DNA of 64,000 nucleotides from Bergeyella sp. (GCA_049841315.1 JASGDB010000014.1:1697-65696); one strand, 5' to 3'. Counted from the stretch's first letter, positions 7,857 through 37,583 are shown. Notes: generated by a model not told the origin, from the letters alone. A program made the numbers and translations.

Positions 7857-8369
7857 TCAATTCTTAAAAATCGGAACATTGGAACACGCTTCGCCGAACA
7901 TCAGTGATTTTACCAATGGTTTGAGTTTTTCCACGAGTTCTATGTAAGCGTTTTCGGGAATTTCCTTGTCGGAACAGCCTTTTACCAGAACTCTTTTGCC
8001 TTTCAGTTCCGTGAAATCATAATTTTCAATGATGTCGTGCATCAGAATCATTTCCAAATCTTCACGGTTTCCGAAAACGATTTTTTTTGCCGAATCCGTC
8101 AGTTTTGCCGTAATCAGAAAATAAGACCAAAGCGGAACAATCGCATCAGCCGAATTGTAGATGTACACGAAAGAATTTTGATAATCTTCCGCATTCATTT
8201 TCTCCACATTTTCACGGAAATCTTTTTCTTTTAAAATCAAACCTTCCCAAAGAAACTCTTTTAAATCGATTCCCTTTCTTTCGCCTTTCGGAACAAGTTC
8301 GGAAAGGTCGAAATTGACGAGGCTTGTATTTTCGGCGACTTTATTTCTTATTTCAAAATTCTCTGACAT
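7857..8369 (-). CDS. DUF2480-like conserved flavobacterial protein
   Basis: The track ORF runs 7857..8396. I prefer the ATG at 8369 (MSENFEIRNKVAENTSLVNFDLSELVPKGERKGIDLKEFL...), which is the usual N-terminus of this family. The function is unknown. Confidence 0.7.
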   Translation of the reverse strand: MSENFEIRNKVAENTSLVNFDLSELVPKGERKGIDLKEFLWEGLILKEKDFRENVEKMNAEDYQNSFVYIYNSADAIVPLWSYFLITAKLTDSAKKIVFGNREDLEMILMHDIIENYDFTELKGKRVLVKGCSDKEIPENAYIELVEKLKPLVKSLMFGEACSNVPIFKN

Positions 8370-8454
8370 TTTATATTCTTGTCTTTGATTCAGCAAATTT
8401 AGTTTAAAATCCTTTGACCTCGTTGTTTAAAAATTCTTATCCGATTTTTTTTTA

Positions 8455-8462
8455 TAAATTTG
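8455..8462 (+). promoter_or_regulatory. Putative -7 promoter box (TAAATTTG) for the antitoxin/YoeB operon
   Basis: It is a perfect match to the Bacteroidota sigma-A -7 consensus TAnnTTTG, about 48 nt upstream of the ATG at 8511. Confidence 0.4.
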
Positions 8463-8510
8463 TTTCGTAAAGAACAATAACCTCATTATAACAAAGCAAA
8501 AAACAACATT

Positions 8511-8735
8511 ATGGAAACTATGGTCGTATATCCGAAAAGCGAAAAACAAAAATCACTACTCGCTTCCTTGCTTGATGAGATGAAGATACGTTTTGAAATT
8601 GCGAAAACGGAAGACGATACAAAAATGACCAAAGAAGAATTTTATGCTATGGTTGATGCCGCAAAACAAGAAGCAAGAGAGGGAAAAGTGCATATTCTAA
8701 CTCCTGAAAAGCAAAAAGAACTTTTAGGACTATGA
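8511..8735 (+). CDS. Putative antitoxin (possibly DUF2683-type) partnered with YoeB-like toxin
   Basis: 74 aa. It overlaps the toxin gene by 4 bp (ATGA). The N-terminal motif LLASLLDEMKIRFEI recurs in the second antitoxin of this window (LLERILEKMKIRFEF, 39601..39828). Confidence 0.65.
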   Translation: METMVVYPKSEKQKSLLASLLDEMKIRFEIAKTEDDTKMTKEEFYAMVDAAKQEAREGKVHILTPEKQKELLGL

Positions 8736-9001
8736 GTTATGAAATTCAATATACCAATAAAGCCAAAAATGGTTTTGAGCGACATAAAAAATCAGGTAAC
8801 AAAAAATTATTGCTTAAAATCAACGAATTATTGAATGAACTAAAAGAACACCCAACATTCGGAACCGGCAAACCGGAGCAACTGAAACATTACGAAATCC
8901 CTACTTATTCCCGCAGAATTTCGGGAGAACACAGGTTGGTTTATGAAATCCACGATGAGGTAGTAACCGTTTTGGTGCTTTCTGCTTACGGACATTATTA
9001 G
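8732..9001 (+). CDS. yoeB: Type II toxin, Txe/YoeB family
   Basis: 89 aa. The pattern ...HKKSGNKKLLLKINELLNELKEHPTFGTGKPEQLK...YSRRISGEHRLVYEI.DEVVTVLVLSAYGHY is the YoeB pattern, including the C-terminal GHY. Confidence 0.85.
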   Translation: MSYEIQYTNKAKNGFERHKKSGNKKLLLKINELLNELKEHPTFGTGKPEQLKHYEIPTYSRRISGEHRLVYEIHDEVVTVLVLSAYGHY

Positions 9002-9063
9002 TTAGCCTGTTCTTTTACCAATCCGCTTTCGGCATTATTTTTTATTTCAAAATTTTCCTGCAT
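9001..9063 (-). pseudogene. Displaced, diverged copy of the 5' end of the DUF2480 gene (21-codon remnant)
   Basis: My translation from the ATG at 9063 is MQENFEIKNNAESGLVKEQAN-stop. The functional gene begins MSENFEIRNKVAENTSLV. In the first 12 aligned codons, 30 of 36 nt are identical, with a one-codon indel. The leader TTTAT..TC after the start codon is also shared. Confidence 0.7.
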
Positions 9064-9064
9064 T

Positions 9065-9823
9065 TTATTCAAAATATTTTTTATTATTTCTAAAAAGTTC
9101 GTACAACAATTTCATATTTTCGAGTTCCTGCCAGTTACATTCTTTGGCGGGATTGCTGTCCAAATTATAAATTTTCGCATTTTCAATCGCTAAAACAAAA
9201 GGCGAATGTGAAGCGATAATGAACTGACAATTATATAAATGCGAATATTTTTCGATTAATTTTTTCACAACTAATTGCAATTTGGGCGAAAAAGAATTTT
9301 CAGGTTCATCAAGCAGATAAAGCGTATCGGGTTCAAAAATGTTTTCAAAATATGAAATAGCCGTTTCTCCGTTTGAAAATTGTTCGGACAATTCGTTGTG
9401 ATTTTGCCAGGCAAACATTCTTGCTCTATCGTCTTTTTCATTGGCTTCCAAAATCCTTTTTTCTGCTTTTTCAGTTTTGCTTCGCAGGTTTACAATGGCT
9501 TCGGCAATATCTTCACTTCGGATAAACCGGCTTTCTTTCGGGATTTTTATTTCTTTTCCGTTTCGTTCAGCCGTTTGAAAACTACATTTTTCTACAAATT
9601 CATTAAAATAGAATGAAGAATTTCCCAATGTTTTATGCTTAATTTTAATTTTTTCGGCAATCACATTCAATAAAGTTGATTTTCCTGAACCATTATTTCC
9701 ATAAAAAACAGTAACCGGAGAAAAATGAATCATATCCAACATTTTTGGACATAAAATCCTATATGGATAAACCCTTCTTTCTTCAAACGGCAACAGAAAT
9801 TTTTCAAGAAAAATCATCGGCAA
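9065..9823 (-). CDS. Small stand-alone ABC/SMC-type AAA ATPase
   Basis: 252 aa. Walker A is GNNGSGKST, the signature-like motif is SNGET, Walker B is LYLLDEPENSF and the H-loop is ASHSP. There is no membrane or nuclease domain. It sits next to the TA cassette. Confidence 0.7.
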   Translation of the reverse strand: MPMIFLEKFLLPFEERRVYPYRILCPKMLDMIHFSPVTVFYGNNGSGKSTLLNVIAEKIKIKHKTLGNSSFYFNEFVEKCSFQTAERNGKEIKIPKESRFIRSEDIAEAIVNLRSKTEKAEKRILEANEKDDRARMFAWQNHNELSEQFSNGETAISYFENIFEPDTLYLLDEPENSFSPKLQLVVKKLIEKYSHLYNCQFIIASHSPFVLAIENAKIYNLDSNPAKECNWQELENMKLLYELFRNNKKYFE

Positions 9824-11372: not shown

Positions 11373-14300
11373 TTATTTCTTGATTACTTTATAAGAACTT
11401 GTTCCTTTTGATGTAATAACCTTTGCAATATATACTCCTTTCACAAGTTTCGATACATCTAAGTTTTCGGATTTTGCTGTTAGTGCAAGATTTCCATTCA
11501 TTCCGTATAGTTCTACAGATTTCAGGGTTTCATTTTTTGATAAACGAATATTCAGAATGTCTTTCACGGGATTCGGGAAGATGGTTGCTTTTTCCGTCTG
11601 ATAATCGGTAACAGCAAGCGTTTCTTCCGGTGTGAAACCTGAAAAATCTATCGTATTGGTGCTTTGAGCTCTGTTTTCATAAGCATTTGAAGATTGTTTG
11701 TCGAGAGGAGCATACAGTTCCATGCTTGACTGAAGCATTTTTTCTTCATAAAGAGCCGTCATTTCTTCCTGATTCATTCCCGAACGGTAGAAAAACCAGT
11801 TGCGGTAACTGATGTCGGAAGGTCCTTCATTACTGTGAAGTGCAAAAATTTTCGCTTCCATTTTTTCATCTACGCTTCCCTGTAAAGCTCCGTCGATATA
11901 AAGAAAAGATTTTCCTCTTGCGTAATAATGTGTGAGGGCAACTCTGTGCCAACCGTTATCATTCACCACTGCCGAACTTGTTACCGTAGTTCCCGTCGGA
12001 GAAGTATAAACGATGTTGCCATTAGCATTAATGACTAAATTTCCGTCTGATGCAGTCGTCGTGAAATTCATAATTTTTCCCGATCCTGTCGTTTTGAAAT
12101 CAAATACCGTTGTGAACGGATGAACGCCGTTATCCGGTGTGAATTTCAGTTCTCCTGCATTGGATACTGCGGGTTTTACATAAGTCGAATTGGTATAAAC
12201 GGGTCTTGTTTTTCCGGCTTGAAGCGCATCGAAAACTGACGGCACGAATGTATAGAATATTTCGGTGTGCCCTGCGGAATTCGGGTGGAGAACATCTGTG
12301 CCGTTCTGATAGCCTGACGGCCATTTCCCGAAACCATCATCCACCGCTCCTAAAGAATTAATACTCGGAACTTCCCATTCGTGCATCAGCAGATTCATTT
12401 GCTTAACAAAATTGTAATCTGTTTCATTAAAATCTCCTCTTCCGTAATTATTCACCACAACCGGAATTTTCCCCGCCGTTTTTGCTTTGTCGATTAAAAG
12501 TAAAAGACCGTTTTTATAAGAATCAAAAGCAGTCTGTCCGGATTCGTGAACGCCCTCATTTCCCAAAGCCAGCCCGAAAACTACATACGAACTGCAATCT
12601 CCGATTAAATCGCTTTCAAACCGGTTCATCACTTTCGTAGTGTTATCACCGGGAACGGCAACATTAGACCTGAAAAATGCAGGGCTTCCGTTGGCTGCTC
12701 TCTGTTGTAAAAGTTCATTAAACTGATAAGCATATCCCTGAAGATTGTCCGCTCCCGTTCCATACATTACAGACGAACCCATAAATGAAATTTTCAGCGG
12801 AGATACATCCTGACAACTCACGCTGTAAGTATAATTTTGCAGGTCAAGCCGCACGATGAATTTCCCGTAAGTCTGTCGGATGTCTTCATAAGCTACTCCG
12901 TAAGCATTTCCTTCAGATTCGGAGATGATGGAATTATTAGTTGTTCCCGTTACTTTTTTGTAAACAAAGCTCCAGCCTCCGTTTGCTCTGAAAATAAATC
13001 GCGGCGTTGTATCGGTGTTGACTACATCCATATCAAGAGCGGCTTCCCAAACTCCGTTTCCTTTATAATCCAGCGGAAGTTCTCCGCTCCACGCACCTTG
13101 AATCGTGCTTCCTACCAAGCCCCAACTAAAGCTGGTAACCGTATAAGTGTTATTGTTAAGGTTAACGAAAATCCTCACCGGTCCTGTAACCGAAGACGTA
13201 ATTTCCGAACCATTCAATTCCAAAGTTCCGGCACTTCCGCCATACGTTTCCGCAGATGCATCTTGGGAAGTATAGAATTTAAAAGTTCCGTTTTCTGACA
13301 GAGAAGTATAAATTTCAAACTGATTCGTTACCAGTCCGGAATTTCCGTTGATATGGTGCAAAGGAATTGCAGCTGCAGGATTATCGCCGTTTTCCGTTCC
13401 GCTTCCGCTGAGATACAGAGCTGTAATCTGATTGGAAATCGCAATCACTTTGCTTCCGCTGATTTCAGGTTTCTGAACGCTTGTCGCCGTAACTGTAATC
13501 GTCCCATTTTTCTTCGGAACTAAAAGTCCTGTTGCGCTGATACTTGCCACAGTTTCATCACTGATGCTCCAAGTAACGCTTTTGTTTGTTGCGTTTGCAG
13601 GAAGCACTTCGGCGGTCATTTGGGAAGATGCTCCCGAAACCGAAATATCATTCCCCGAAACGGAAACAGATGCTACATCAACAACTGATGAAGCTGCATA
13701 TTCCTCAATTTTGATAATATTAATGTAGCCGTATTTTTGGGTATCAGTCTGCGTAAAAGCAAGATTAAAAATAATTTTGCCATTTGCGTCAGGAGACATC
13801 GGTTCAGAAACGAACACATTATTATCCGATATAGCCGGGGAAGATGCAATCGTGGCATTTACTGTAGCTGCTCCAACCAATGAAAACACGGAAGTTCTCG
13901 AATCACTGGCAGGGCGGGATGCCAGAAGATAAAATTTATATTGCTTCCCCGCATCAAATCCGCTGAATTCTATCTGCCCTGTCGGATTATTGTCTGAATT
14001 TGACACATAAAAATAATCTGAAAACGCTCTGAGAACCGCCAAATCAGGATAGGTAACTGTTGTCCATGATGATGGCCCGTATTGGCTTCCCGTATTCAGC
14101 ACCATATTGTCCGTAACTCTGTAGCTTAATCCTGATGAGCCTCCGTTGCTGTTGATAAGCGGAGAAGCAGTTGCAGAAACAGTAGCGGAAGTGATATTGT
14201 TCCAGTTGTTTCCGTTGGCATCAGGATTCGCAGTTGCACCACCGACACCATTGCTTGTTCCCGGGTTTGCAGGCCCGAAATCCATGTATATTTTCTGTGA

Positions 14301-18200: not shown

Positions 18201-18320
18201 TACGAGTTGCGGGATTCGAGATGCGAGTTTATATTTGTTTATAAAATGACCATTCCACCCCGAATCTCGTATCTCGTACCCCGAATCTCGTAACCCGCAC
18301 CCCGTATCTCGTATCTCGAA
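18201..18320. repeat. Three tandem 21-bp units (CCCCGWATCTCGTA-core) plus an upstream inverted partial copy
   Basis: The units are 18258-18278 ccccgaatctcgtatctcgta, 18279-18299 ccccgaatctcgtaacccgca and 18300-18320 ccccgtatctcgtatctcgaa. An inverted relative, tacgagttgcgggattcgagatgcgag, lies at 18201-18227. The array ends 5 nt before the ATG at 18326. Confidence 0.8.
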
Positions 18321-18325
18321 TAAAA

Positions 18326-19437: not shown

Positions 19438-19489
19438 CAAAATTTCCTTACCTTTATTCCGCCAAACGAATAGCAAAAATGCGTCAAAA
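19438..19489 (+). repeat. Direct repeat copy 1: displaced copy of the leader plus start codon of the methylmalonyl-CoA mutase gene
   Basis: caaaatttccttacctttattccgccaaacgaatagcaaaaatgcgtcaaaa matches 20179-20230 at 47 of 52 positions (my count). It includes an ATG (19479) that opens only a 19-codon dead ORF (MRQNFEAFF...). Confidence 0.85.
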
Positions 19490-19522
19490 TTTTGAAGCGT
19501 TTTTTTTGTTGCAAACTTTTTA

Positions 19523-19530
19523 TATATTTG
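19523..19530 (+). promoter_or_regulatory. Putative -7 promoter box (TATATTTG) for the PIN toxin-antitoxin operon
   Basis: It is a perfect TAnnTTTG, 20 nt upstream of the ATG at 19551. A TTG lies further upstream (19506-19511). Confidence 0.4.
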
Positions 19531-19550
19531 TGTTATAAAATTTCGGAAAA

Positions 19551-19766
19551 ATGCCAACTACATTAAACGATTCCCAATTAGAAGTCCTGAAAGTGCTGAC
19601 ACACTTGAAAGACGAGAGCGATGTGGCAGAAATAAAATCCCTGCTTTTGGCATATCTTTCGGAGAAAGTGGTAAAGATTGCCGATTCGGTTTCCGACGAA
19701 AAACAATACACGCAAGCCGTTTTTGAAAAATGGAAACAAGGGCATTTCCGCAAAACCGCAAAATAA
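19551..19766 (+). CDS. Putative antitoxin of PIN-family toxin
   Basis: 71 aa, immediately abutting the PIN gene (stop TAA 19764-66, next ATG 19767). It is a small, acidic, helical protein. Confidence 0.6.
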   Translation: MPTTLNDSQLEVLKVLTHLKDESDVAEIKSLLLAYLSEKVVKIADSVSDEKQYTQAVFEKWKQGHFRKTAK

Positions 19767-20177
19767 ATGACGGCGGTTTTAGATTGTAATATCTTGGTAA
19801 CTTGTCTTACCTCTCGTTCCCAGTTTCACATTATTTTTCAATCGCTGGTTTCGGAAAGATTTAATCTTGCCGTAACTTCCGAAATTCTTTTGGAATACGA
19901 AGAAATCATTACCGAAAAATACGGAAAATCTACCGCAAATGCTTTTATGGCACTACTTTCCGAACTTCCAAATGTTCAGTTTATCAATACTTATTATCAG
20001 TGGAATTTGATTTTCGCAGATGCAGACGACAACAAATATTGCGATTGCGCAATTGCATCTAATGCAGATTTCTTGGTAACGGAAGACAAACATTTCAAAA
20101 TTCTGAAAAATATTCCTTTTCCCTATCTCAGAATTTATACGACTGAAGAATTTGTAAAAATTTTGGAAAACAGATAA
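19767..20177 (+). CDS. PIN-domain toxin (putative toxin-antitoxin system toxin component, PIN family)
   Basis: 136 aa. It has an N-terminal acidic residue in AVLDCNILV, then SEILLEYEE, and the C-terminal motif DADDNKYCDCAIASNADFLVTEDKHF typical of this PIN subfamily. Confidence 0.8.
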   Translation: MTAVLDCNILVTCLTSRSQFHIIFQSLVSERFNLAVTSEILLEYEEIITEKYGKSTANAFMALLSELPNVQFINTYYQWNLIFADADDNKYCDCAIASNADFLVTEDKHFKILKNIPFPYLRIYTTEEFVKILENR

Positions 20178-20178
20178 T

Positions 20179-20230
20179 CAAAATTTCCTTACATTTATCC
20201 CGCCAAACAAAAAGCAAAAATGCGCCAAAA
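20179..20230 (+). repeat. Direct repeat copy 2: functional leader plus start codon of the methylmalonyl-CoA mutase gene
   Basis: It starts 2 nt after the PIN stop codon and contains the real ATG (20220). It is 47/52 identical to 19438-19489. Confidence 0.85.
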
Positions 20231-22337
20231 AATTACAACCCAAAACCCTGATTTTCAAAATTTTAAATTTGATACTCATTCGGAAAATTATTTTTTTGAA
20301 AAAGACGGTTTGCAACTGAAAACCAATTATTCCGAAACAGATGTTTCCGAAATTGCGAAAAATTCAGCGGCAGGAATTGCGCCGTTTTTGCGAGGACCTT
20401 ATTCCACAATGTATGTTCAGAAACCTTGGACAATCCGCCAATACGCAGGATTTTCCACAGCCGAAGAATCCAATGCGTTTTACCGCAGAAATCTTGCAGC
20501 CGGACAGAAAGGACTTTCCGTAGCGTTTGATTTGGCAACGCATCGCGGATATGATTCCAACCACCCTCGTGTTGTCGGCGATGTCGGAAAAGCGGGTGTA
20601 GCGATTGATTCTGTGGAAGATATGAAGATTTTGTTTGACCAAATTCCGCTTGATGAAATCTCGGTTTCTATGACGATGAACGGAGCGGTTTTGCCGATTT
20701 TGGCGTTTTATATCGTTGCTGCGGAAGAACAGGGCGTTTCGCAAAATCAACTTTCGGGAACGATTCAGAACGATATTCTGAAAGAATTTATGGTTCGGAA
20801 CACTTACATTTATCCGCCGAAACCGTCAATGAAAATCATCGCCGATATTTTTGAATACACTTCTAAAAATATCCCGAAATTCAATTCCATTTCCATTTCG
20901 GGTTATCATATGCAGGAAGCGGGAGCAACGCCCGTTTTGGAGATGGCTTACACCCTTGCAGACGGCTTGGAATATGTGCGGACAGGCATAAAAGCAGGAA
21001 TGAATATTGACGATTTCGCTCCGAGATTATCCTTTTTCTGGGCAATCGGAATGAATCATTTTATGGAAATTGCCAAAATGCGCGCGGCACGTTATATCTG
21101 GGCGAATCTTTTAACCCAATTCAATCCGCAGAATCCGAAATCATTGGCACTCAGAACACATTCGCAAACTTCGGGTTGGAGTTTGACCGAGCAGGAACCA
21201 TTTAACAATATCACAAGAACGGCGATTGAAGCCTTGTCTTCCGCTTTGGGTGGAACGCAGTCTTTGCACACGAACGCTTTGGACGAAGCAATTGCGCTTC
21301 CTACCGATTATTCGGCAAAAATTGCGAGAAATACGCAGATTATTTTGCAGCAGGAATCGGGAATTTGCGATGTGGTTGACCCGATGGGCGGAAGTTTTTT
21401 GGTGGAATCTCTCACGCAGCAAATGATTGACAAAGCAATGGAATACATTGACGAAGTAGAAAAAGAAGGCGGAATGACCAAAGCCATTGAAGCCGGAATC
21501 CCGAAAATGAGAATTGAAGAAGCGGCAGCGATTAAACAGGCGAAAATTGACAGCGGAGAAGAATTTATCATCGGTGTCAATTCCTTCAAATCAGAATTAA
21601 AACAGCCGGAAATCGAAATCCTCGCCATCGACAATACCGAAGTGAGAAGAAAACAAATCGAAAGGCTGGAAAAAATAAAATCCGAACGAAAGACCGAGGC
21701 GGTCAGCCAAATTTTAGATAAAATTAGAGAATGTGCTAAATCTGGAAACGGAAATCTTTTGGCATTGTGCATCGAAGCTGCTAGAAGACGTGTAACTCTG
21801 GGCGAAATGAGCGATGCGATGGAGGAAAGTTTCGGGCGGTACAGAGCCAATATTAAAACCATTTCAGGAGTTTACGCTATGAATGCAACGAAAAACGAAT
21901 ATTTTGAAAAAGCCGTGAATCTCGCCCAAAAATTTGAAGACGAAGAAGGAAGAAGACCGCGAATTATGGTCGCCAAAATGGGACAGGACGGTCACGACAG
22001 AGGTGCAAAAGTCGTGGCAACCGCTTTTGCCGATATGGGATTTGATGTGGACGTTGCGCCGCTGTTCCAAACGCCGGAAGAAGTCGCAAAACAAGCGGTG
22101 GAAAACGACATTCACGTTTTGGGTGTTTCTTCGCTTGCGGCGGGACACAACACGCTCGTTCCGCAAGTGGTGGAAGAACTGAAAAAACTCGGTGCAGACG
22201 ATATTGTTATTGTTGTCGGCGGCGTGATTCCTCAGCAGGATTATGATTTTCTTTTCCAAAACGGTGCGGATTTCATCTTCGGTCCCGGAACGAATCTGCC
22301 AAAATGTGCGGTGGAGGTTTTGGAGAAGCTACTGTAA
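20220..22337 (+). CDS. scpA: Methylmalonyl-CoA mutase (catalytic barrel fused to B12-binding domain)
   Basis: 705 aa. [56 protein letters not shown], and a C-terminal [23 protein letters not shown] (DxHxxG cobalamin-binding motif). Confidence 0.92.
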
Positions 22338-22397
22338 TAAAAAGAGAGAACTTTATGTTTGTGATTCACCTGCTTAAATCCTTAAAATTTTTCTAAA

Positions 22398-22458
22398 TAC
22401 ACGACAAAAATTTATTAACCCCAAAAGGAATCTCCTGATTTTCAATTTTTGTCGTGTA
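22398..22458. repeat. Perfect 15-bp inverted repeat with a 31-nt spacer
   Basis: tacacgacaaaaatt (22398-22412) pairs with aatttttgtcgtgta (22444-22458). It lies downstream of the mutase gene and upstream of the lipoprotein gene. Confidence 0.6.
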
Positions 22459-22601
22459 CTAATTCAATAAAATTTTTTACAAGATAAATATTGCCGGTAT
22501 TAAAGACAAATATGTACGGATTATTGATAATATCAATATTCGGCACCCTTGTTTTAGTGCCAAATCTTAGTTTTGTTGGACTAATTTAAAAAAATAAAAA
22601 T

Positions 22602-23369
22602 ATGAAACCAATGAAACATTTATGGATAGCGGCAATTGTATTGCTGCTGACCTTTGCTTTTTCCTGCAACTCTTCTTCTGATGATGATTCTGAAACTCAG
22701 CTGCCCGCTTTGAGGGAATCAAGCAGTGGAGACCTTATTGAAATTACCAATACCACAGCCGTTTTCAAAAGCACTATCAGCAGTGATGGAGGCAGCCCGA
22801 TAACACAAAGAGGAGTGGTTTGGAACACTGCTGAAAACCCGACTACGGCAAACAATAAAACCACAGACGGAAGCGGAACAGGCAATTTTACCAGCAATAT
22901 TACCGGGCTGATTCCAAATACAAAGTATTATTTGCGTGCTTATGCTATCAACTCAAACGGAATTACATACGGAAACCAGTTGAACTTTAACACGACAAGC
23001 GTGCCAAAAAAATTTGATATAACGCTGGAAGCAGTGCATACAGACACCATTGATACGCCTGGCTATCAAACTTGTGTGATATTTGGTGTTGCAAAAATCC
23101 CGACAGAATCTAATGCTAAATCATACTCTGTTAAAGCTATGAACACCGGCATCAGCTTTATAGACGGCAAGATTTGGAATTTTGATGCAGATGACCCGAA
23201 TCCCCCGGGAAAATTTATCGGTTATGGGCTTCCGCGCGGGAAATTAAGCAACAGTATATATCCTATGGCAATTACTACATTGAGAAGCGGCTCAGGACCT
23301 ATATCTTCTGAACCACACGACCCAACTATCCCATTAGCAGGGAAGGTGGAAGTTACGATAAATTATTAA
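22602..23369 (+). CDS. Hypothetical lipoprotein with FN3/Ig-like N-terminal module
   Basis: 255 aa. The signal plus lipobox is LLLTFAFSC/NSSSDDD. The segment ITQRGVVWNTAENPTTANNKTTDGSGTGNFTSNITGLIPNTKYYLRAYAINSNGITYG looks like a surface-repeat module. Confidence 0.55.
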   Translation: MKPMKHLWIAAIVLLLTFAFSCNSSSDDDSETQLPALRESSSGDLIEITNTTAVFKSTISSDGGSPITQRGVVWNTAENPTTANNKTTDGSGTGNFTSNITGLIPNTKYYLRAYAINSNGITYGNQLNFNTTSVPKKFDITLEAVHTDTIDTPGYQTCVIFGVAKIPTESNAKSYSVKAMNTGISFIDGKIWNFDADDPNPPGKFIGYGLPRGKLSNSIYPMAITTLRSGSGPISSEPHDPTIPLAGKVEVTINY

Positions 23370-23421
23370 AAAGTTTTAGAGCCTGTGATAAGTTTGCAAA
23401 TAAATACCCGATAGCTTTAAA

Positions 23422-24552
23422 CTATCGGGTGTTTTGTGTAAAATTCCTTTTGTATTCTAAGGGTGTTATTCCTGTAAATTTCTTAAAGGCGTTGTTAAAA
23501 GTCGTTTTGGAGTTGAAGCCTGCCTCCAAACCAATAGCAACCAATGTATAATTTTGAAAATCAGGATTTTCAAGATAACTTTTAGCTTCTTCTACCCGAA
23601 GTTCATTTACATAATCTGAAAAATTTTTCCCCAATTCGGCATTGATAATCCTGGACAAATGGCTTTTGCTGATGTTTATTTTTTCCGCAACTAATTCCAA
23701 AGACAAATTGCTGTCAAGATAATTTTTGTCCTGTTTGATGAATTTTTCAAACACTGCGATATTTTTATTTTGAGTATAATCAATTTCAATTTCGGGATTA
23801 CTTTTCGAAAATTCCCGTATTTTTTTCTGCTCCTCAAAAACCCCGAAATGATAAAGTCCAACGTGTCCCAAAATATAAATGGTAAGCGACAAACCTACCC
23901 ATAAAGCATAGAAAAGCACAAGAGAAGTATCTAACTTATATTGAAATTCGTAATAAAGAGGAACAACCCAGTAAACACAAAGACAGAAAAGTATGATAGT
24001 GATGATTTTCAGCCATTTCAACTGCGGTTTGGGAAATCCGGTTTTGCCCGTAAAAGGCTTTCCGTCTGCTTTTAAAATCAGCCGGTAAGAGGCAAAAATT
24101 AAAATAAATGAATAGAAAACATTGAATGTTTCCATACCAATGCGGAAATTATTAAAATAAACTACGTGAGAATTATTAAACCAACCAACAGCAAAACCTA
24201 TTTTCTCAAAAACAGACTCAGTAAAAGCATTAAAAAAGGGTATAAACAAAAGATAATCGGATTTTGACACTTTTCTGTTCTGATTGAGAAATGATTTGAC
24301 ATAAAGGTAAAACAAAACCAAAAACACCGATGAAAACGGAATGTAAAAAATCTGAAAATAACTATAATTCGTCAATATGCCGGAAGCAAACAGATAATTC
24401 TGAATAATATTGTAGGAGAATGTAAGTATGAGCATTCCCAAAAAGAAGTTGCTTGAACTCTTATACTTTTTGGAAAAGAAAGCAAAACCAGAGAAAAAAA
24501 CTCCCTGAACCGCTCCGAGAAGCATAATGATTTGTATTACGGATATTGCCAT
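23422..24552 (-). CDS. Membrane-anchored AraC-family transcriptional regulator
   Basis: 376 aa. About 7 N-terminal TM helices, then a C-terminal AraC HTH (SKSHLSRIINAELGKNFSDYVNELRVEEAKSYL...GFNSKTTFNNAFKKFTGITPLEYKR). Confidence 0.8.
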   Translation of the reverse strand: MAISVIQIIMLLGAVQGVFFSGFAFFSKKYKSSSNFFLGMLILTFSYNIIQNYLFASGILTNYSYFQIFYIPFSSVFLVLFYLYVKSFLNQNRKVSKSDYLLFIPFFNAFTESVFEKIGFAVGWFNNSHVVYFNNFRIGMETFNVFYSFILIFASYRLILKADGKPFTGKTGFPKPQLKWLKIITIILFCLCVYWVVPLYYEFQYKLDTSLVLFYALWVGLSLTIYILGHVGLYHFGVFEEQKKIREFSKSNPEIEIDYTQNKNIAVFEKFIKQDKNYLDSNLSLELVAEKINISKSHLSRIINAELGKNFSDYVNELRVEEAKSYLENPDFQNYTLVAIGLEAGFNSKTTFNNAFKKFTGITPLEYKRNFTQNTR

Positions 24553-24646
24553 AAAAGCAAATTTTATAAACTCATAAATTCAATCGGTAAAAATAATAAG
24601 TTTCCGCATAAAAACAATCAAATAGAGTGAAACTCACAAAACCACA

Positions 24647-24671
24647 AAAAGGTTTCTTTTTTTCGTATATT
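24647..24671 (+). repeat. Direct repeat copy 1: displaced copy of the leader of the dipeptide-epimerase gene
   Basis: aaaaggtttctttttttcgtatatt is identical to 26023-26046 except for one extra T in the homopolymer run. An ATGAA follows 4 nt later (24676), as in the functional copy, but it opens only MNIRN-stop. Confidence 0.7.
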
Positions 24672-24703
24672 AGAAATGAATATTCGCAATTAGGAAGCGG
24701 TTT

Positions 24704-24770
24704 GTTTGTCATTCCGCAGGAATCTAAATTGCCGAAAATAAAATTGTTAAGATTCCTACGGAAAGACAAA
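24704..24770. repeat. Inverted pair of TGTCATTCCG...AGGAATCT-type palindromic repeats
   Basis: tttgtcattccgcaggaatct (24704-24724) pairs with agattcctacggaaagacaaa (24750-24770). They belong to the same family as the copy inside the ABC exporter gene at 62863-62890. This explains the spurious track ORF 24572..24769. Confidence 0.75.
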
Positions 24771-24816
24771 GTGACTGTTGAATTTTAACGCTATGATTAA
24801 AAACAAGCATTCAAAA

Positions 24817-24875
24817 AATATAATATTTTAGGGTTGTAATCACAAAATATTATAATATTTTGGGGCTGTAATCTC
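24817..24875 (+). repeat. Tandem ~28-bp duplication (TAATATTTT-GGGNTGTAATC) just upstream of the DUF4143-type ATPase gene
   Basis: Unit 1 is 24817-24843 aatataatattttagggttgtaatcac. Unit 2 is 24845-24875 aaatattataatattttggggctgtaatctc. It could be an operator or promoter-associated duplication. Confidence 0.6.
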
Positions 24876-24882
24876 AATTTAT

Positions 24883-24890
24883 TATATTTG
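24883..24890 (+). promoter_or_regulatory. Putative -7 promoter box (TATATTTG) 4 nt before the ATPase start codon
   Basis: It is a perfect TAnnTTTG ending at 24890, and the GTG start is at 24895. This implies a leaderless or near-leaderless transcript. Confidence 0.4.
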
Positions 24891-24894
24891 CAAT

Positions 24895-26007
24895 GTGATA
24901 AAGCGGGAACTCAATAGCAATATTCAGCAGGATTGGGACAATCGGAAAGCGATTGTAATTATCGGAGCAAGACAGGTGGGAAAAACTACGCTGATTTCCA
25001 ATCTCGTGGAAAACAAAAACACATTGTTTCTGAGCGGAGACAATCCGCAAACCCGATTGAATTTCGCCAATGCCGATTTTAATTTTCTTAAAAACACCGT
25101 AGAAAATCACGATGTCATCGTGATTGACGAAGCACAGCGTATTGAAAATATCGGGATAAGCGTAAAAATGCTTATTGATGCCAAATTAGATAAACAATTT
25201 ATCCTTACAGGTTCGAGTTCATTGGAATTGGGCGACACGCTGAACGAACCATTGACAGGCAGAAAATGGGTACATCTTATGTTTCCTTTGAGTTGGAAAG
25301 AAGTTCGGGAGCATTACGGATTTGCAGAAGCGACCAGTCGGCTGGAAGAGTTTCTACTGTACGGAATGTATCCCGAAGTGGTTACAGAAAGCCGAAAACA
25401 GAAAATTTTACTGCAACTTTCGGGGAGTTATCTTTATAAAGATATTCTGGAACTCGTCAATATCAAAAAGCCCGATTTGCTTCTGAAATTGCTGAATGCT
25501 TTGGCATTGCAAGTAGGGAACGAGGTTTCGTATAACGAACTTTCAAAGATTCTGGCGGTGGACAGAATGACGGTTGTCAATTATATCGACCTGCTGGAAA
25601 AAGCGTTTGTCATCTTCCGGCTCTATCCGTTTTCGACCAATCAGCGAAACGAAATCACTTCAAAACCAAAGATTTATTTTTATGACAACGGAATCCGAAA
25701 CGCCGTTATCGGACAGTTTAATCCACTGAAAAACCGACAGGATACAGGTGCTTTGTTTGAAAATTTCATCATCAGCGAAAAGATAAAACGCCTTTCCTAC
25801 GACGGTTTTTACGGAAAAACTCATTTTTGGAGAAATACGCAGAAAGCGGAAATCGACTTTTTGGAAATCATCGAAGACGAAATTTCGGTCTATGAAATAA
25901 AATACAGCCCGAAAAAGAAAGTGATTTTTACCAAATCCTTTACCGAAAAATACAATCCCGTGAAGCAGACGGTTATCAATAAAGATAATTTCTGGGAGTA
26001 TTTGTAA
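24895..26007 (+). CDS. AAA+ ATPase with C-terminal DUF4143-type domain
   Basis: 370 aa, GTG start. Walker A is IIGARQVGKTTL and Walker B is VIVIDEAQ. The C-terminal half (YFYDNGIRNAVIG...FENFIISE...WRNTQKAEIDFL) has the pattern seen in AAA_14/DUF4143 proteins. Confidence 0.8.
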   Translation: MIKRELNSNIQQDWDNRKAIVIIGARQVGKTTLISNLVENKNTLFLSGDNPQTRLNFANADFNFLKNTVENHDVIVIDEAQRIENIGISVKMLIDAKLDKQFILTGSSSLELGDTLNEPLTGRKWVHLMFPLSWKEVREHYGFAEATSRLEEFLLYGMYPEVVTESRKQKILLQLSGSYLYKDILELVNIKKPDLLLKLLNALALQVGNEVSYNELSKILAVDRMTVVNYIDLLEKAFVIFRLYPFSTNQRNEITSKPKIYFYDNGIRNAVIGQFNPLKNRQDTGALFENFIISEKIKRLSYDGFYGKTHFWRNTQKAEIDFLEIIEDEISVYEIKYSPKKKVIFTKSFTEKYNPVKQTVINKDNFWEYL

Positions 26008-36581: not shown

Positions 36582-37466
36582 TTAATCATTATACACCGAA
36601 GTTTTATAAGCAATCAGCGTGTTTTTCATCAGCATTGCTCTGGTCATTGGTCCCACTCCGCCCGGAACAGGCGTAATCCAGCCGGCTTTTTTCTCGCAAC
36701 TTTCAAAATCCACGTCGCCTGCCAGGTGATATCCTTTCTCGGAATCGTCATCAACACGCGTAATTCCGACATCAATAATGACAGCACCGTTTTTTATCAT
36801 TTCGCCTTTCAGGAAATTCGGGTCGCCGAGTGCGGTTATCACAATATCGGCGTTTTTCGTATATTCTTCAATATGTTCCGTGTAAGAATGTGTGAGCGTA
36901 ACGGTGGAATTTCCGGGGAAATCTTTCCGCCCCATCAAGATGCTCATCGGTTTTCCCACAATCCGGCTTCGTCCGATGATGACGCAGTTTTTTCCTTTCG
37001 TTTCAATGTTGTAGCGTTCCAATATTGTCAAAATTCCGTAAGGCGTTGCCGGAAGAAAAGTGTCCATTTCCAACGCCATTTTCCCGAAATTTTCGGGATG
37101 AAATCCGTCCACGTCTTTTCTCGGGTCTATTGCCATAATGATTTTTTCCTGGTCAATTTGTTTCGGCAACGGCAACTGAACGATGAATCCGTCCACCGCT
37201 TTTGATTTGTTGAGTTCCTCAATTTTTTCCAACAATTCGGCTTCGGAAACCGTGCTCGGGAATTTCAGAAGCGAAGAACGGAAACCGACTTCTTCGCAAT
37301 CTTTCACTTTGGAATTGACATACGCTTTGCTCGCACCGTTGTTTCCCACGAGAATTGCCACCAAATGCGGAGCGCGTCTTTTGTTTTCGAGGATTTTTTC
37401 GACTTCCGATTTTATTTCCCGTTTTATGGTTTTGGATAGTGATAATCCGTCAAGAATCTGAGCCAT
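36582..37466 (-). CDS. folD: Bifunctional methylenetetrahydrofolate dehydrogenase/methenyl-THF cyclohydrolase
   Basis: 294 aa. MAQILDGLSLSKTIK..., VGNNGASKAYVNSK, GFIVQLPLP, and GRSRIVGKPM. Confidence 0.92.
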   Translation of the reverse strand: MAQILDGLSLSKTIKREIKSEVEKILENKRRAPHLVAILVGNNGASKAYVNSKVKDCEEVGFRSSLLKFPSTVSEAELLEKIEELNKSKAVDGFIVQLPLPKQIDQEKIIMAIDPRKDVDGFHPENFGKMALEMDTFLPATPYGILTILERYNIETKGKNCVIIGRSRIVGKPMSILMGRKDFPGNSTVTLTHSYTEHIEEYTKNADIVITALGDPNFLKGEMIKNGAVIIDVGITRVDDDSEKGYHLAGDVDFESCEKKAGWITPVPGGVGPMTRAMLMKNTLIAYKTSVYND

Positions 37467-37476
37467 TTTTTGCTTT
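37444..37476. repeat. Direct repeat copy 1: functional start region of folD (first 8 codons plus 10 nt of leader)
   Basis: aatccgtcaagaatctgagccattttttgcttt is identical over 33/33 nt to 39275-39307. Weaker similarity continues for about 12 more nt after a 7-nt indel. Confidence 0.9.
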
Positions 37477-37583
37477 ATTTCACTTTATTTAGACTAAAAT
37501 CAATACGAAAATTAATATAAAGTATTGATTATCATGTGTTTTTTATGTTGTTATATTAAGTTTTATTATTTTTTTATTAATTA

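Follow-up and report, generated by a model that had tools for sequence, protein, structure and literature searches.

The arrangement termed 'insertion with long target duplication' came to light for restriction-modification (RM) genes of Helicobacter pylori (Nobusato et al. 2000, Gene 259:99) and afterwards in several phyla (Furuta et al. 2010, PMC2853133). In the published RM cases, direct repeats of more than 30 bp bracket the insert, the repeat is a unique target sequence that often overlaps a gene end, no mobility gene is carried, and the hosts are mostly naturally competent species; a property shared by RM systems, for example double-strand breakage, together with a virus-like cycle was suggested by the authors (PMC2853133). 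A review comparing RM and toxin-antitoxin (TA) systems ascribes this mode to RM systems only. Long direct repeats, of 152 bp, also flank a ParE/ParD module of Microcystis aeruginosa (PMC7935541), and a process that needs no recombinase, homology-facilitated illegitimate recombination, which combines one homologous anchor with one illegitimate joint, has been described in transformable bacteria (de Vries & Wackernagel 2002; Prudhomme et al. 2002; PMC2884548). The spread of small addiction and defence genes from one chromosome to another in the absence of a recombinase is poorly understood, and the mode, described since 2000, has no accepted mechanism. Here, we analyzed a TA cassette encoding a PIN_3 toxin that lies between 52-nt direct repeats immediately upstream of the methylmalonyl-CoA mutase gene (mcm) in a 64,000-nt stretch of Bergeyella sp. 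DNA (JASGDB010000014.1:1697-65696), referred to below as the window.

The two repeat arms (Table 1) align without gaps, are identical at 47/52 positions, and are spaced 741 nt from start to start. Their best-diagonal score was 37, compared to a maximum of 13 in 20 shuffles of the downstream region. Each arm consists of the mcm leader from position -41 to -1 followed by the first 11 coding bases of the gene, ending at +11 in codon 4 (ATG CGY CAA AA), and ATGCG is present in both; five positions differ, and the sole coding mismatch (CGT/CGC) is synonymous. The 689-bp insert between them holds only a 71-aa antitoxin-like open reading frame (ORF) and the PIN_3 toxin ORF, with the antitoxin-gene stop (TAA) abutting the ATG of the PIN gene and a single base separating the PIN stop (TAA, 20175-20177) from the downstream arm. 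GC content is 0.35 in the insert and 0.40-0.44 in its neighbours. Homologous cassettes carry a TAnnTTTG box at the place equivalent to the -7 promoter box of this one. No terminal inverted repeats were found on the cassette, and no recombinase domain was found in annotated genes of at least 150 aa between ~9 and 30 kb of the window. The features called in the original prediction were all recovered at this locus: the repeats with their shared ATGCG, the dead 19-codon ORF opened by the upstream copy, the 705-aa mutase opened by the downstream copy right after the PIN stop, a -7 box belonging to the cassette itself, and exactly one TA operon in the interval.

Comparison with related genomes assigned the repeat to the mcm target. 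The organism was placed in the Chryseobacterium-Kaistella-Epilithonimonas group of the Weeksellaceae, where the best homologues are 83-84% identical for the upstream dehydrogenase and 91-93% for the mutase. Three mutase relatives (L178, 93%; L180, 92%; L001, 87%) each have one mcm leader and no TA pair, and the second-best match to the 52-mer within these loci was at most 29/52. Their leaders are homologous to the arms from the exact start point of the arms, at an identity of just 33/52, and their upstream genes differ from that of the window. Both arms are equally distant (33/52) from these leaders, and the five arm differences could not be polarised. In the window itself, the 52-mer has just two copies (third-best match, 28-30/52), and exact matches to its 25-nt core (TTTCCTTACNTTTATYCCGCCAAAC) were found neither in the 183 loci retrieved nor among the viral contigs of the collection. 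Two outcomes that had been named in advance as contradicting an insertion, TA-less relatives keeping both 52-mers and a dispersed 52-mer, were not seen in the sequences searched. An intergenic region between the dehydrogenase and mcm had also been predicted for related genomes, and this adjacency proved absent in the Kaistella/Epilithonimonas-like relatives: the gene upstream of mcm varies by relative (HAD hydrolase, aconitase, or an unknown gene), and the dehydrogenase is followed there by a beta-lactamase-family gene. The 155 nt upstream of the dead arm aligned with nothing. The central claim, that a TA cassette was dropped into the mcm upstream region, is supported by the single TA-free leader in relatives, by the confinement of the 52-mer to two copies in the sequences searched, by the low GC content, and by a near relative of the cassette that has unrelated arms (L081, below). 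We conclude that the locus is very probably a horizontally acquired, recombinase-free type II TA cassette, comprising a PIN_3 toxin, an uncharacterised 71-aa antitoxin and its own -7 box, between the native mcm promoter and leader and mcm, with arms that are two versions of mcm -41 to +11. We assign its insertion with high confidence to the mode with long target duplication.

Further cases were sought in a metagenome scan with the PIN alignment and in additional look-ups. At least 12 independent insertions of this TA family carry target-derived repeats, from 28 to ~270 nt long, and the arms are unrelated between loci. The closest cassette, L081 (P0002, 86% PIN identity), belongs to another organism and lies between a SpoU methylase gene and a convergent rsmE; its arms (50/53) copy the last 50 nt of rsmE and are unrelated to those of the window, and the same arrangement was seen in 10 contigs that came from different samples and assemblers. 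Enrichment was assessed in cassettes with at least 900 nt on both sides, using a flanking-repeat score of at least 30. Such repeats flanked 7/36 cassettes, compared to 1/58 windows shifted by 2 kb (Fisher p=0.005) and 2/404 random tiles of other Bacteroidota loci (Fisher p=4e-7). The cassette ends are variable, with 8-384 nt from the arm to the antitoxin ATG and 1-758 nt from the PIN stop to the arm; the L149 cassette has lost its own promoter and sits behind a -7 box inside the arm. A fixed stagger of 52-53 bp (about five helical turns), considered for the window and L081, was dropped after repeats of 28-270 nt had been found. L099 is an ambiguous case, as the type IX secretion system (T9SS) tail domains it involves have many paralogues. 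Three loci (L111, L116, and L174) were excluded, their repeats resembling a dispersed hairpin-type element with nested copies. These loci are GC-rich and contain the same TA pair amid nested repeats, one of which is a hairpin-type element (GCAGGGTCTCCGGAACGGGACCCTGC) that also makes up a 290-nt tandem in L174; this element is probably of the dispersed kind and not a target duplication.

The coding arms of these sister events bear on how the repeats arose. If identical arms had decayed after insertion, mismatches would be expected to fall evenly over codon positions, with at most ~45% at third positions where the live copy changes synonymously. Pooled over the coding arms (Table 1), mismatches between live and dead copies numbered 14, 17, and 54 at positions 1, 2, and 3; third positions (54/85) were in excess both of one third (p=1.2e-8) and of the 45% model (p=4.5e-4). 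Blocks 1-2 of the L106 secA arms differ by 23 synonymous and 2 non-synonymous codon changes, and the dead fragment encodes the SEC-C zinc finger unchanged save for one frameshifting insertion. Similarly, 7 synonymous and 1 non-synonymous changes separate the L189 arms, and the dead transporter fragment keeps a 47-aa ORF. The third-position excess and the intact frames in dead copies suggest that the arms in several events are orthologous versions from two lineages and not a fresh duplication that decayed; by their substitution pattern, they look like sequences that evolved under purifying selection in two lineages. As regards the predicted duplication of the mcm leader and start, the two copies therefore stand, while a duplication made at insertion is not required.

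Table 1. Features of the mcm locus, of the two other repeat-bracketed inserts in the window, and of repeat arms at other loci. Mismatches are between live and dead arms, by codon position.
Feature	Coordinates	Strand	Arm length (nt)	Mismatches at positions 1/2/3	Remarks
Upstream arm, dead copy	19438-19489	+	52		mcm leader plus ATG CGT CAA AA; ATG at 19479; alignable to the sole mcm leader in L178 and in L180
Downstream arm, functional copy	20179-20230	+	52		mcm leader plus first 11 coding bases; ATG at 20220
Coding part of the window PIN arms				0/0/1	One synonymous change
Dead ORF	19479-19538	+			19 codons, MRQNFEAFFLLQTFYIFVL; opened by the duplicated mcm ATG, enters the insert; stop 19536-19538
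Filler from dead arm to conserved cassette	19490-19516	+			27 nt; its initial 15 nt (19490-19504) repeat the arm's last 15 nt in inverted form (13/15)
Bacteroidota-type -7 promoter box of the cassette	19523-19530	+			TATATTTG; position kept in cassette homologues
Putative antitoxin gene	19551-19766	+			71 aa; no Pfam or NCBIfam family
PIN_3 (TIGR00305) toxin gene	19767-20177	+			136 aa, full length, all family-invariant residues; PF13470 E=1e-17; TIGR00305 above cut-off
Methylmalonyl-CoA mutase gene (mcm)	20220-22337	+			705 aa; PF01642 and PF02310; directly behind the cassette
Second window event (YoeB)	8336-9068	+	39	1/3/3	Arms 8336-8374 and 9030-9068, 82%
DUF2683-like antitoxin gene, second event	8511-8735
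YoeB toxin gene, second event	8732-9001
Third window event	37444-39310	-	36		Arms 37444-37479 and 39275-39310, 97%
SLFN_AlbA_2 and HATPase_c_4 gene, third event	37584-39227				547 aa; GC 0.31
L081, rsmE			53	0/1/2	All three mismatches synonymous
L153			28
L149			39
L176			57	0/0/2
L184			68
L189			111 and 43
L189 transporter 3' end, block 1				1/0/7
L189 transporter 3' end, block 2				2/1/2
L159			128
L163			194
L099			221	6/3/6
L106			about 270		With indels
L106 secA 3' end, block 1				0/0/7
L106 secA 3' end, block 2				2/3/15
L106 secA 3' end, block 3				1/3/2
L059, mcm 3' end			166	1/3/7

The junction between dead arm and insert (19489|19490) is the exact centre of a palindrome, AAAAATGCGTCAAAA|TTTTGAAGCGTTTTT, that matches at 13/15 positions (19475-19504), a score reached at just 3/63,960 positions of the window. 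Together with the T8 that follows it, the palindrome forms a terminator-like hairpin (-11.6 kcal/mol, z -2.0). We read it as the mark of an illegitimate joint of the fold-back or hairpin type.

For the origin of the locus, we tentatively favour a homology-assisted capture of foreign DNA, likely after natural transformation, an account to which we give somewhat less than even confidence. Incoming DNA from a related lineage would already bear the cassette beside its own mcm leader. This donor DNA would recombine homologously somewhere inside mcm, and an illegitimate joint, at 19489|19490, would link its other end to position +11 of the mcm copy in the resident chromosome. The leader and start of the resident would persist as the dead arm, and the donor leader and start would serve as the functional arm. 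All sequence between this joint and the limit of homology would then be present twice, and the apparent duplication would be a juxtaposition of resident and donor copies that had already diverged. Of the single events that would yield arms of two lineages, this is the simplest, and it amounts to homology-facilitated illegitimate recombination as described in transformable bacteria. Riemerella, of the same family as the relatives of the window, is naturally competent. Taken as one best explanation, the assignment of the locus to this class of insertion and the capture mechanism have, in our estimate, about an even chance of being right.

Several observations weigh against this account. The window PIN repeat is mostly non-coding, and the codon-position argument rests on sister events; the synonymous bias is absent from two coding repeats (L099 and the window YoeB event), and without L106 the third-position excess has p=2.7e-4 against one third and rises to p=0.045 against the 45% model. 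A sliding comparison of divergence along mcm revealed no recombination tract, third positions being near saturation relative to the available relatives. Exact look-ups of the window dehydrogenase and PIN proteins returned no match, and the collections contain no same-species empty site; as identity to the nearest relatives reaches only 84% (dehydrogenase) to 93% (mutase), donor and resident arms are indistinguishable for the window cassette. No palindrome was found at 21 other junctions. The capture model shifts the first insertion beside mcm into an unseen donor. Finally, the same codon bias would be given by a true duplication followed by allelic replacement of the live gene, and arms of two ancestries would also result from excision and re-insertion of the cassette, the two alternatives considered next.

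A true long target-site duplication is the strongest alternative, though we regard it as rather unlikely. Nicks 52 bp apart on opposite strands, or template switching during replication, would open the target, the cassette would be joined and the overhangs filled, and the arms, identical at first, would diverge later, partly through replacement of the live gene by another allele. The RM cases in the literature have classically been read in this way, and the model fits the exactly coinciding arm boundaries, for the near-identical arms of some sister events (28/28, 38/39, 35/36, and 55/57), and for the unbiased YoeB and L099 arms. Neutral decay would not be expected, however, to produce the excess of third-position mismatches or to leave frames intact in dead copies. 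Arm lengths are also highly variable, and neither the cassettes nor their surroundings encode an enzyme that cuts with a stagger varying from 28 to 270 bp.

We consider improbable a Campbell-type cycle, in which the arms would recombine to release a circle, or to amplify in tandem a unit of cassette plus one arm, and that arm would then supply portable homology for RecA-dependent re-insertion by single crossover at the same gene in related cells. Arms of at least 28 nt are within the range usable by RecA, and RM units bracketed by repeats have been proposed to amplify and to follow a 'virus-like' life cycle (PMC2853133). Such a cycle leaves unexplained, however, the spread of the same TA family to new loci with unrelated arms; arms of 52 bp with 90% identity, or of 270 bp with ~83%, would be very poor substrates for crossing over, and circular or tandem forms were not seen in any contig.

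A defined mobile element, moved by an enzyme encoded elsewhere and having the repeats as its attachment or terminal sites (attC of an integron, attL/attR of an integrase, or the ends of a non-autonomous transposon), is very improbable. TA pairs are common as integron cassettes, and direct repeats flank many islands; here, however, the arms derive from the target (mcm leader plus start at this locus; rsmE, secA, and transporter 3' ends at others) and are unrelated between loci bearing near-identical cassettes. No integrase or transposase lies nearby, and the variable cassette ends, lack of terminal inverted repeats, and repeat lengths of 28-270 nt do not match a transposon or a miniature inverted-repeat transposable element. 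Chance similarity, a dispersed repeat, or an assembly artefact can practically be dismissed: short matches are common in this AT-rich region, but the alignment score far exceeds that of shuffled sequence, the repeat occurs nowhere else in the loci and viral contigs searched, the five arm differences would not be expected from an assembly loop, and the L081 structure recurs across samples and assemblers.

Locally, the insertion has separated a core metabolic gene from its promoter. No terminator was predicted on the plus strand between the PIN stop and mcm, and because only one base lies between that stop and the arm, a common transcript of mcm and the TA operon is probable. Transcripts started at the former mcm promoter would encounter first the hairpin with its T8 and next the promoter of the cassette. 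Were the arms to recombine and delete the interval, the antitoxin gene would be lost, and post-segregational killing should select against such loss, which would explain why persisting repeat-bracketed inserts are often addiction modules. It is possible, though speculative, that repeat-bracketed TA and defence cassettes in these Bacteroidota form a class of recombinase-free mobile DNA, in which the arm would act as a portable 'address' from a core gene of the previous host and killing would block loss.

The module itself appears well conserved. Residues D6, E46, D88, D93, and D107 of the PIN protein are invariant in 36 homologues, including the window protein, and a homologous partner of 70-96 aa is encoded immediately upstream of the PIN gene in 11/11 loci inspected. 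The 71-aa partner matched no recognised antitoxin family in Pfam or NCBIfam, and no solved structure for the PIN family was found by sequence. On phages, plasmids, and viral contigs, the sole match to the cassette was a 33% identical one on a Spirosoma plasmid. In three bracketed cassettes, the PIN toxin gene is inactivated and the antitoxin gene intact, by in-frame stops in L099 (3001-3405) and L106 (1852-2256) and by a frameshift in L176 (3001-3400).

Two further repeat-bracketed inserts are present in the window. In the YoeB event, the arms are copies from a minus-strand DUF2480 gene and contain its leader with the first 11 codons; the dead arm directly adjoins the stop codon of an AAA_21/AAA_15 ATPase gene (9065-9823). 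The arms of the third event consist of the leader and first 7 codons of folD. Between its dead folD arm and the end of pgi, the minus strand of 39321-39828 encodes a 96-aa ParE-family toxin and a DUF2683-like partner of 75 aa; no repeat flanking this pair exceeded background, including a possible third, decayed one. Similar arrangements were noted in Bacteroidota loci that had been fetched for the mutase and are unrelated to the window: an AAA_14/DUF4143 ATPase island flanked on both sides by copies (166 nt) of the mcm 3' end (L059, 4775-8014), an ATPase_2/DUF234 gene between 47-nt repeats (L069, 289-1887), and a UDG-family gene between 58-nt repeats (L077, 6216-7057). In L049 (6234-7791), a 364-aa protein of unknown family is encoded between long direct repeats of target sequence.

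Other features were observed around mcm. Relative to L178, the window has 3.7 kb extra (22338-26007) between mcm and the MR_MLE_C gene, encoding a 255-aa unknown protein, an AraC-type regulator, and an AAA_14/DUF4143 ATPase; no flanking repeats were found around this segment. A 32-nt tandem pair lies at 24813-24876, just upstream of the ATPase gene. Overlapping short CCCGAATCTCGTA-like units occupy 18259-18321, just upstream of the 2-hydroxyacid dehydrogenase gene, with a weaker copy at 13633-13660.

Overall, these data indicate that the long-repeat mode is common for an ordinary TA family in Bacteroidota, accounting for about one in five cassettes here, with three events in a single 64-kb window. 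DNA-cutting cargo is not needed, and the arms often show a two-lineage signature. Together, these points lead to a testable model, one-sided homologous capture during transformation; if true, it would provide a mechanism for 'insertion with long target duplication' and show the mode to be independent of DNA breaks made by the cargo.

Among known systems, the cassette resembles VapBC-type PIN modules in that a small upstream antitoxin gene abuts a toxin gene encoding a PIN protein of ~135 aa and in that the acidic residues and the pairing are conserved; it appears to differ from them in its predicted toxin family, PIN_3/TIGR00305 instead of the PF01850 of classical VapC, and in a partner that matches no family. 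As in the Microcystis ParE/ParD case, a TA pair lies between long direct repeats, but the repeats there are identical, contain inverted repeats, and have no established target origin. Events of homology-facilitated illegitimate recombination usually delete resident DNA. In the capture model, by contrast, the resident copy of the anchor region would itself contain the joint, and a repeat would be left. The likeness is closest to the RM inserts with long target duplication. As there, the unit is small (below 20 kb), of low GC content and without a mobility gene, the repeats exceed 30 bp, vary in length, derive from a unique target sequence and often overlap the end of a neighbouring gene, and the family of the host includes naturally competent species. 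The locus differs in its cargo, a PIN_3 toxin and antitoxin in place of RM genes, and the arms in this set of events show signs of two ancestries. None of the three window cargos (the PIN_3 TA pair, the YoeB pair, and the AlbA_2/HATPase protein) includes a predicted DNA-cleaving enzyme, which argues against a cargo-driven break as the cause of insertion.

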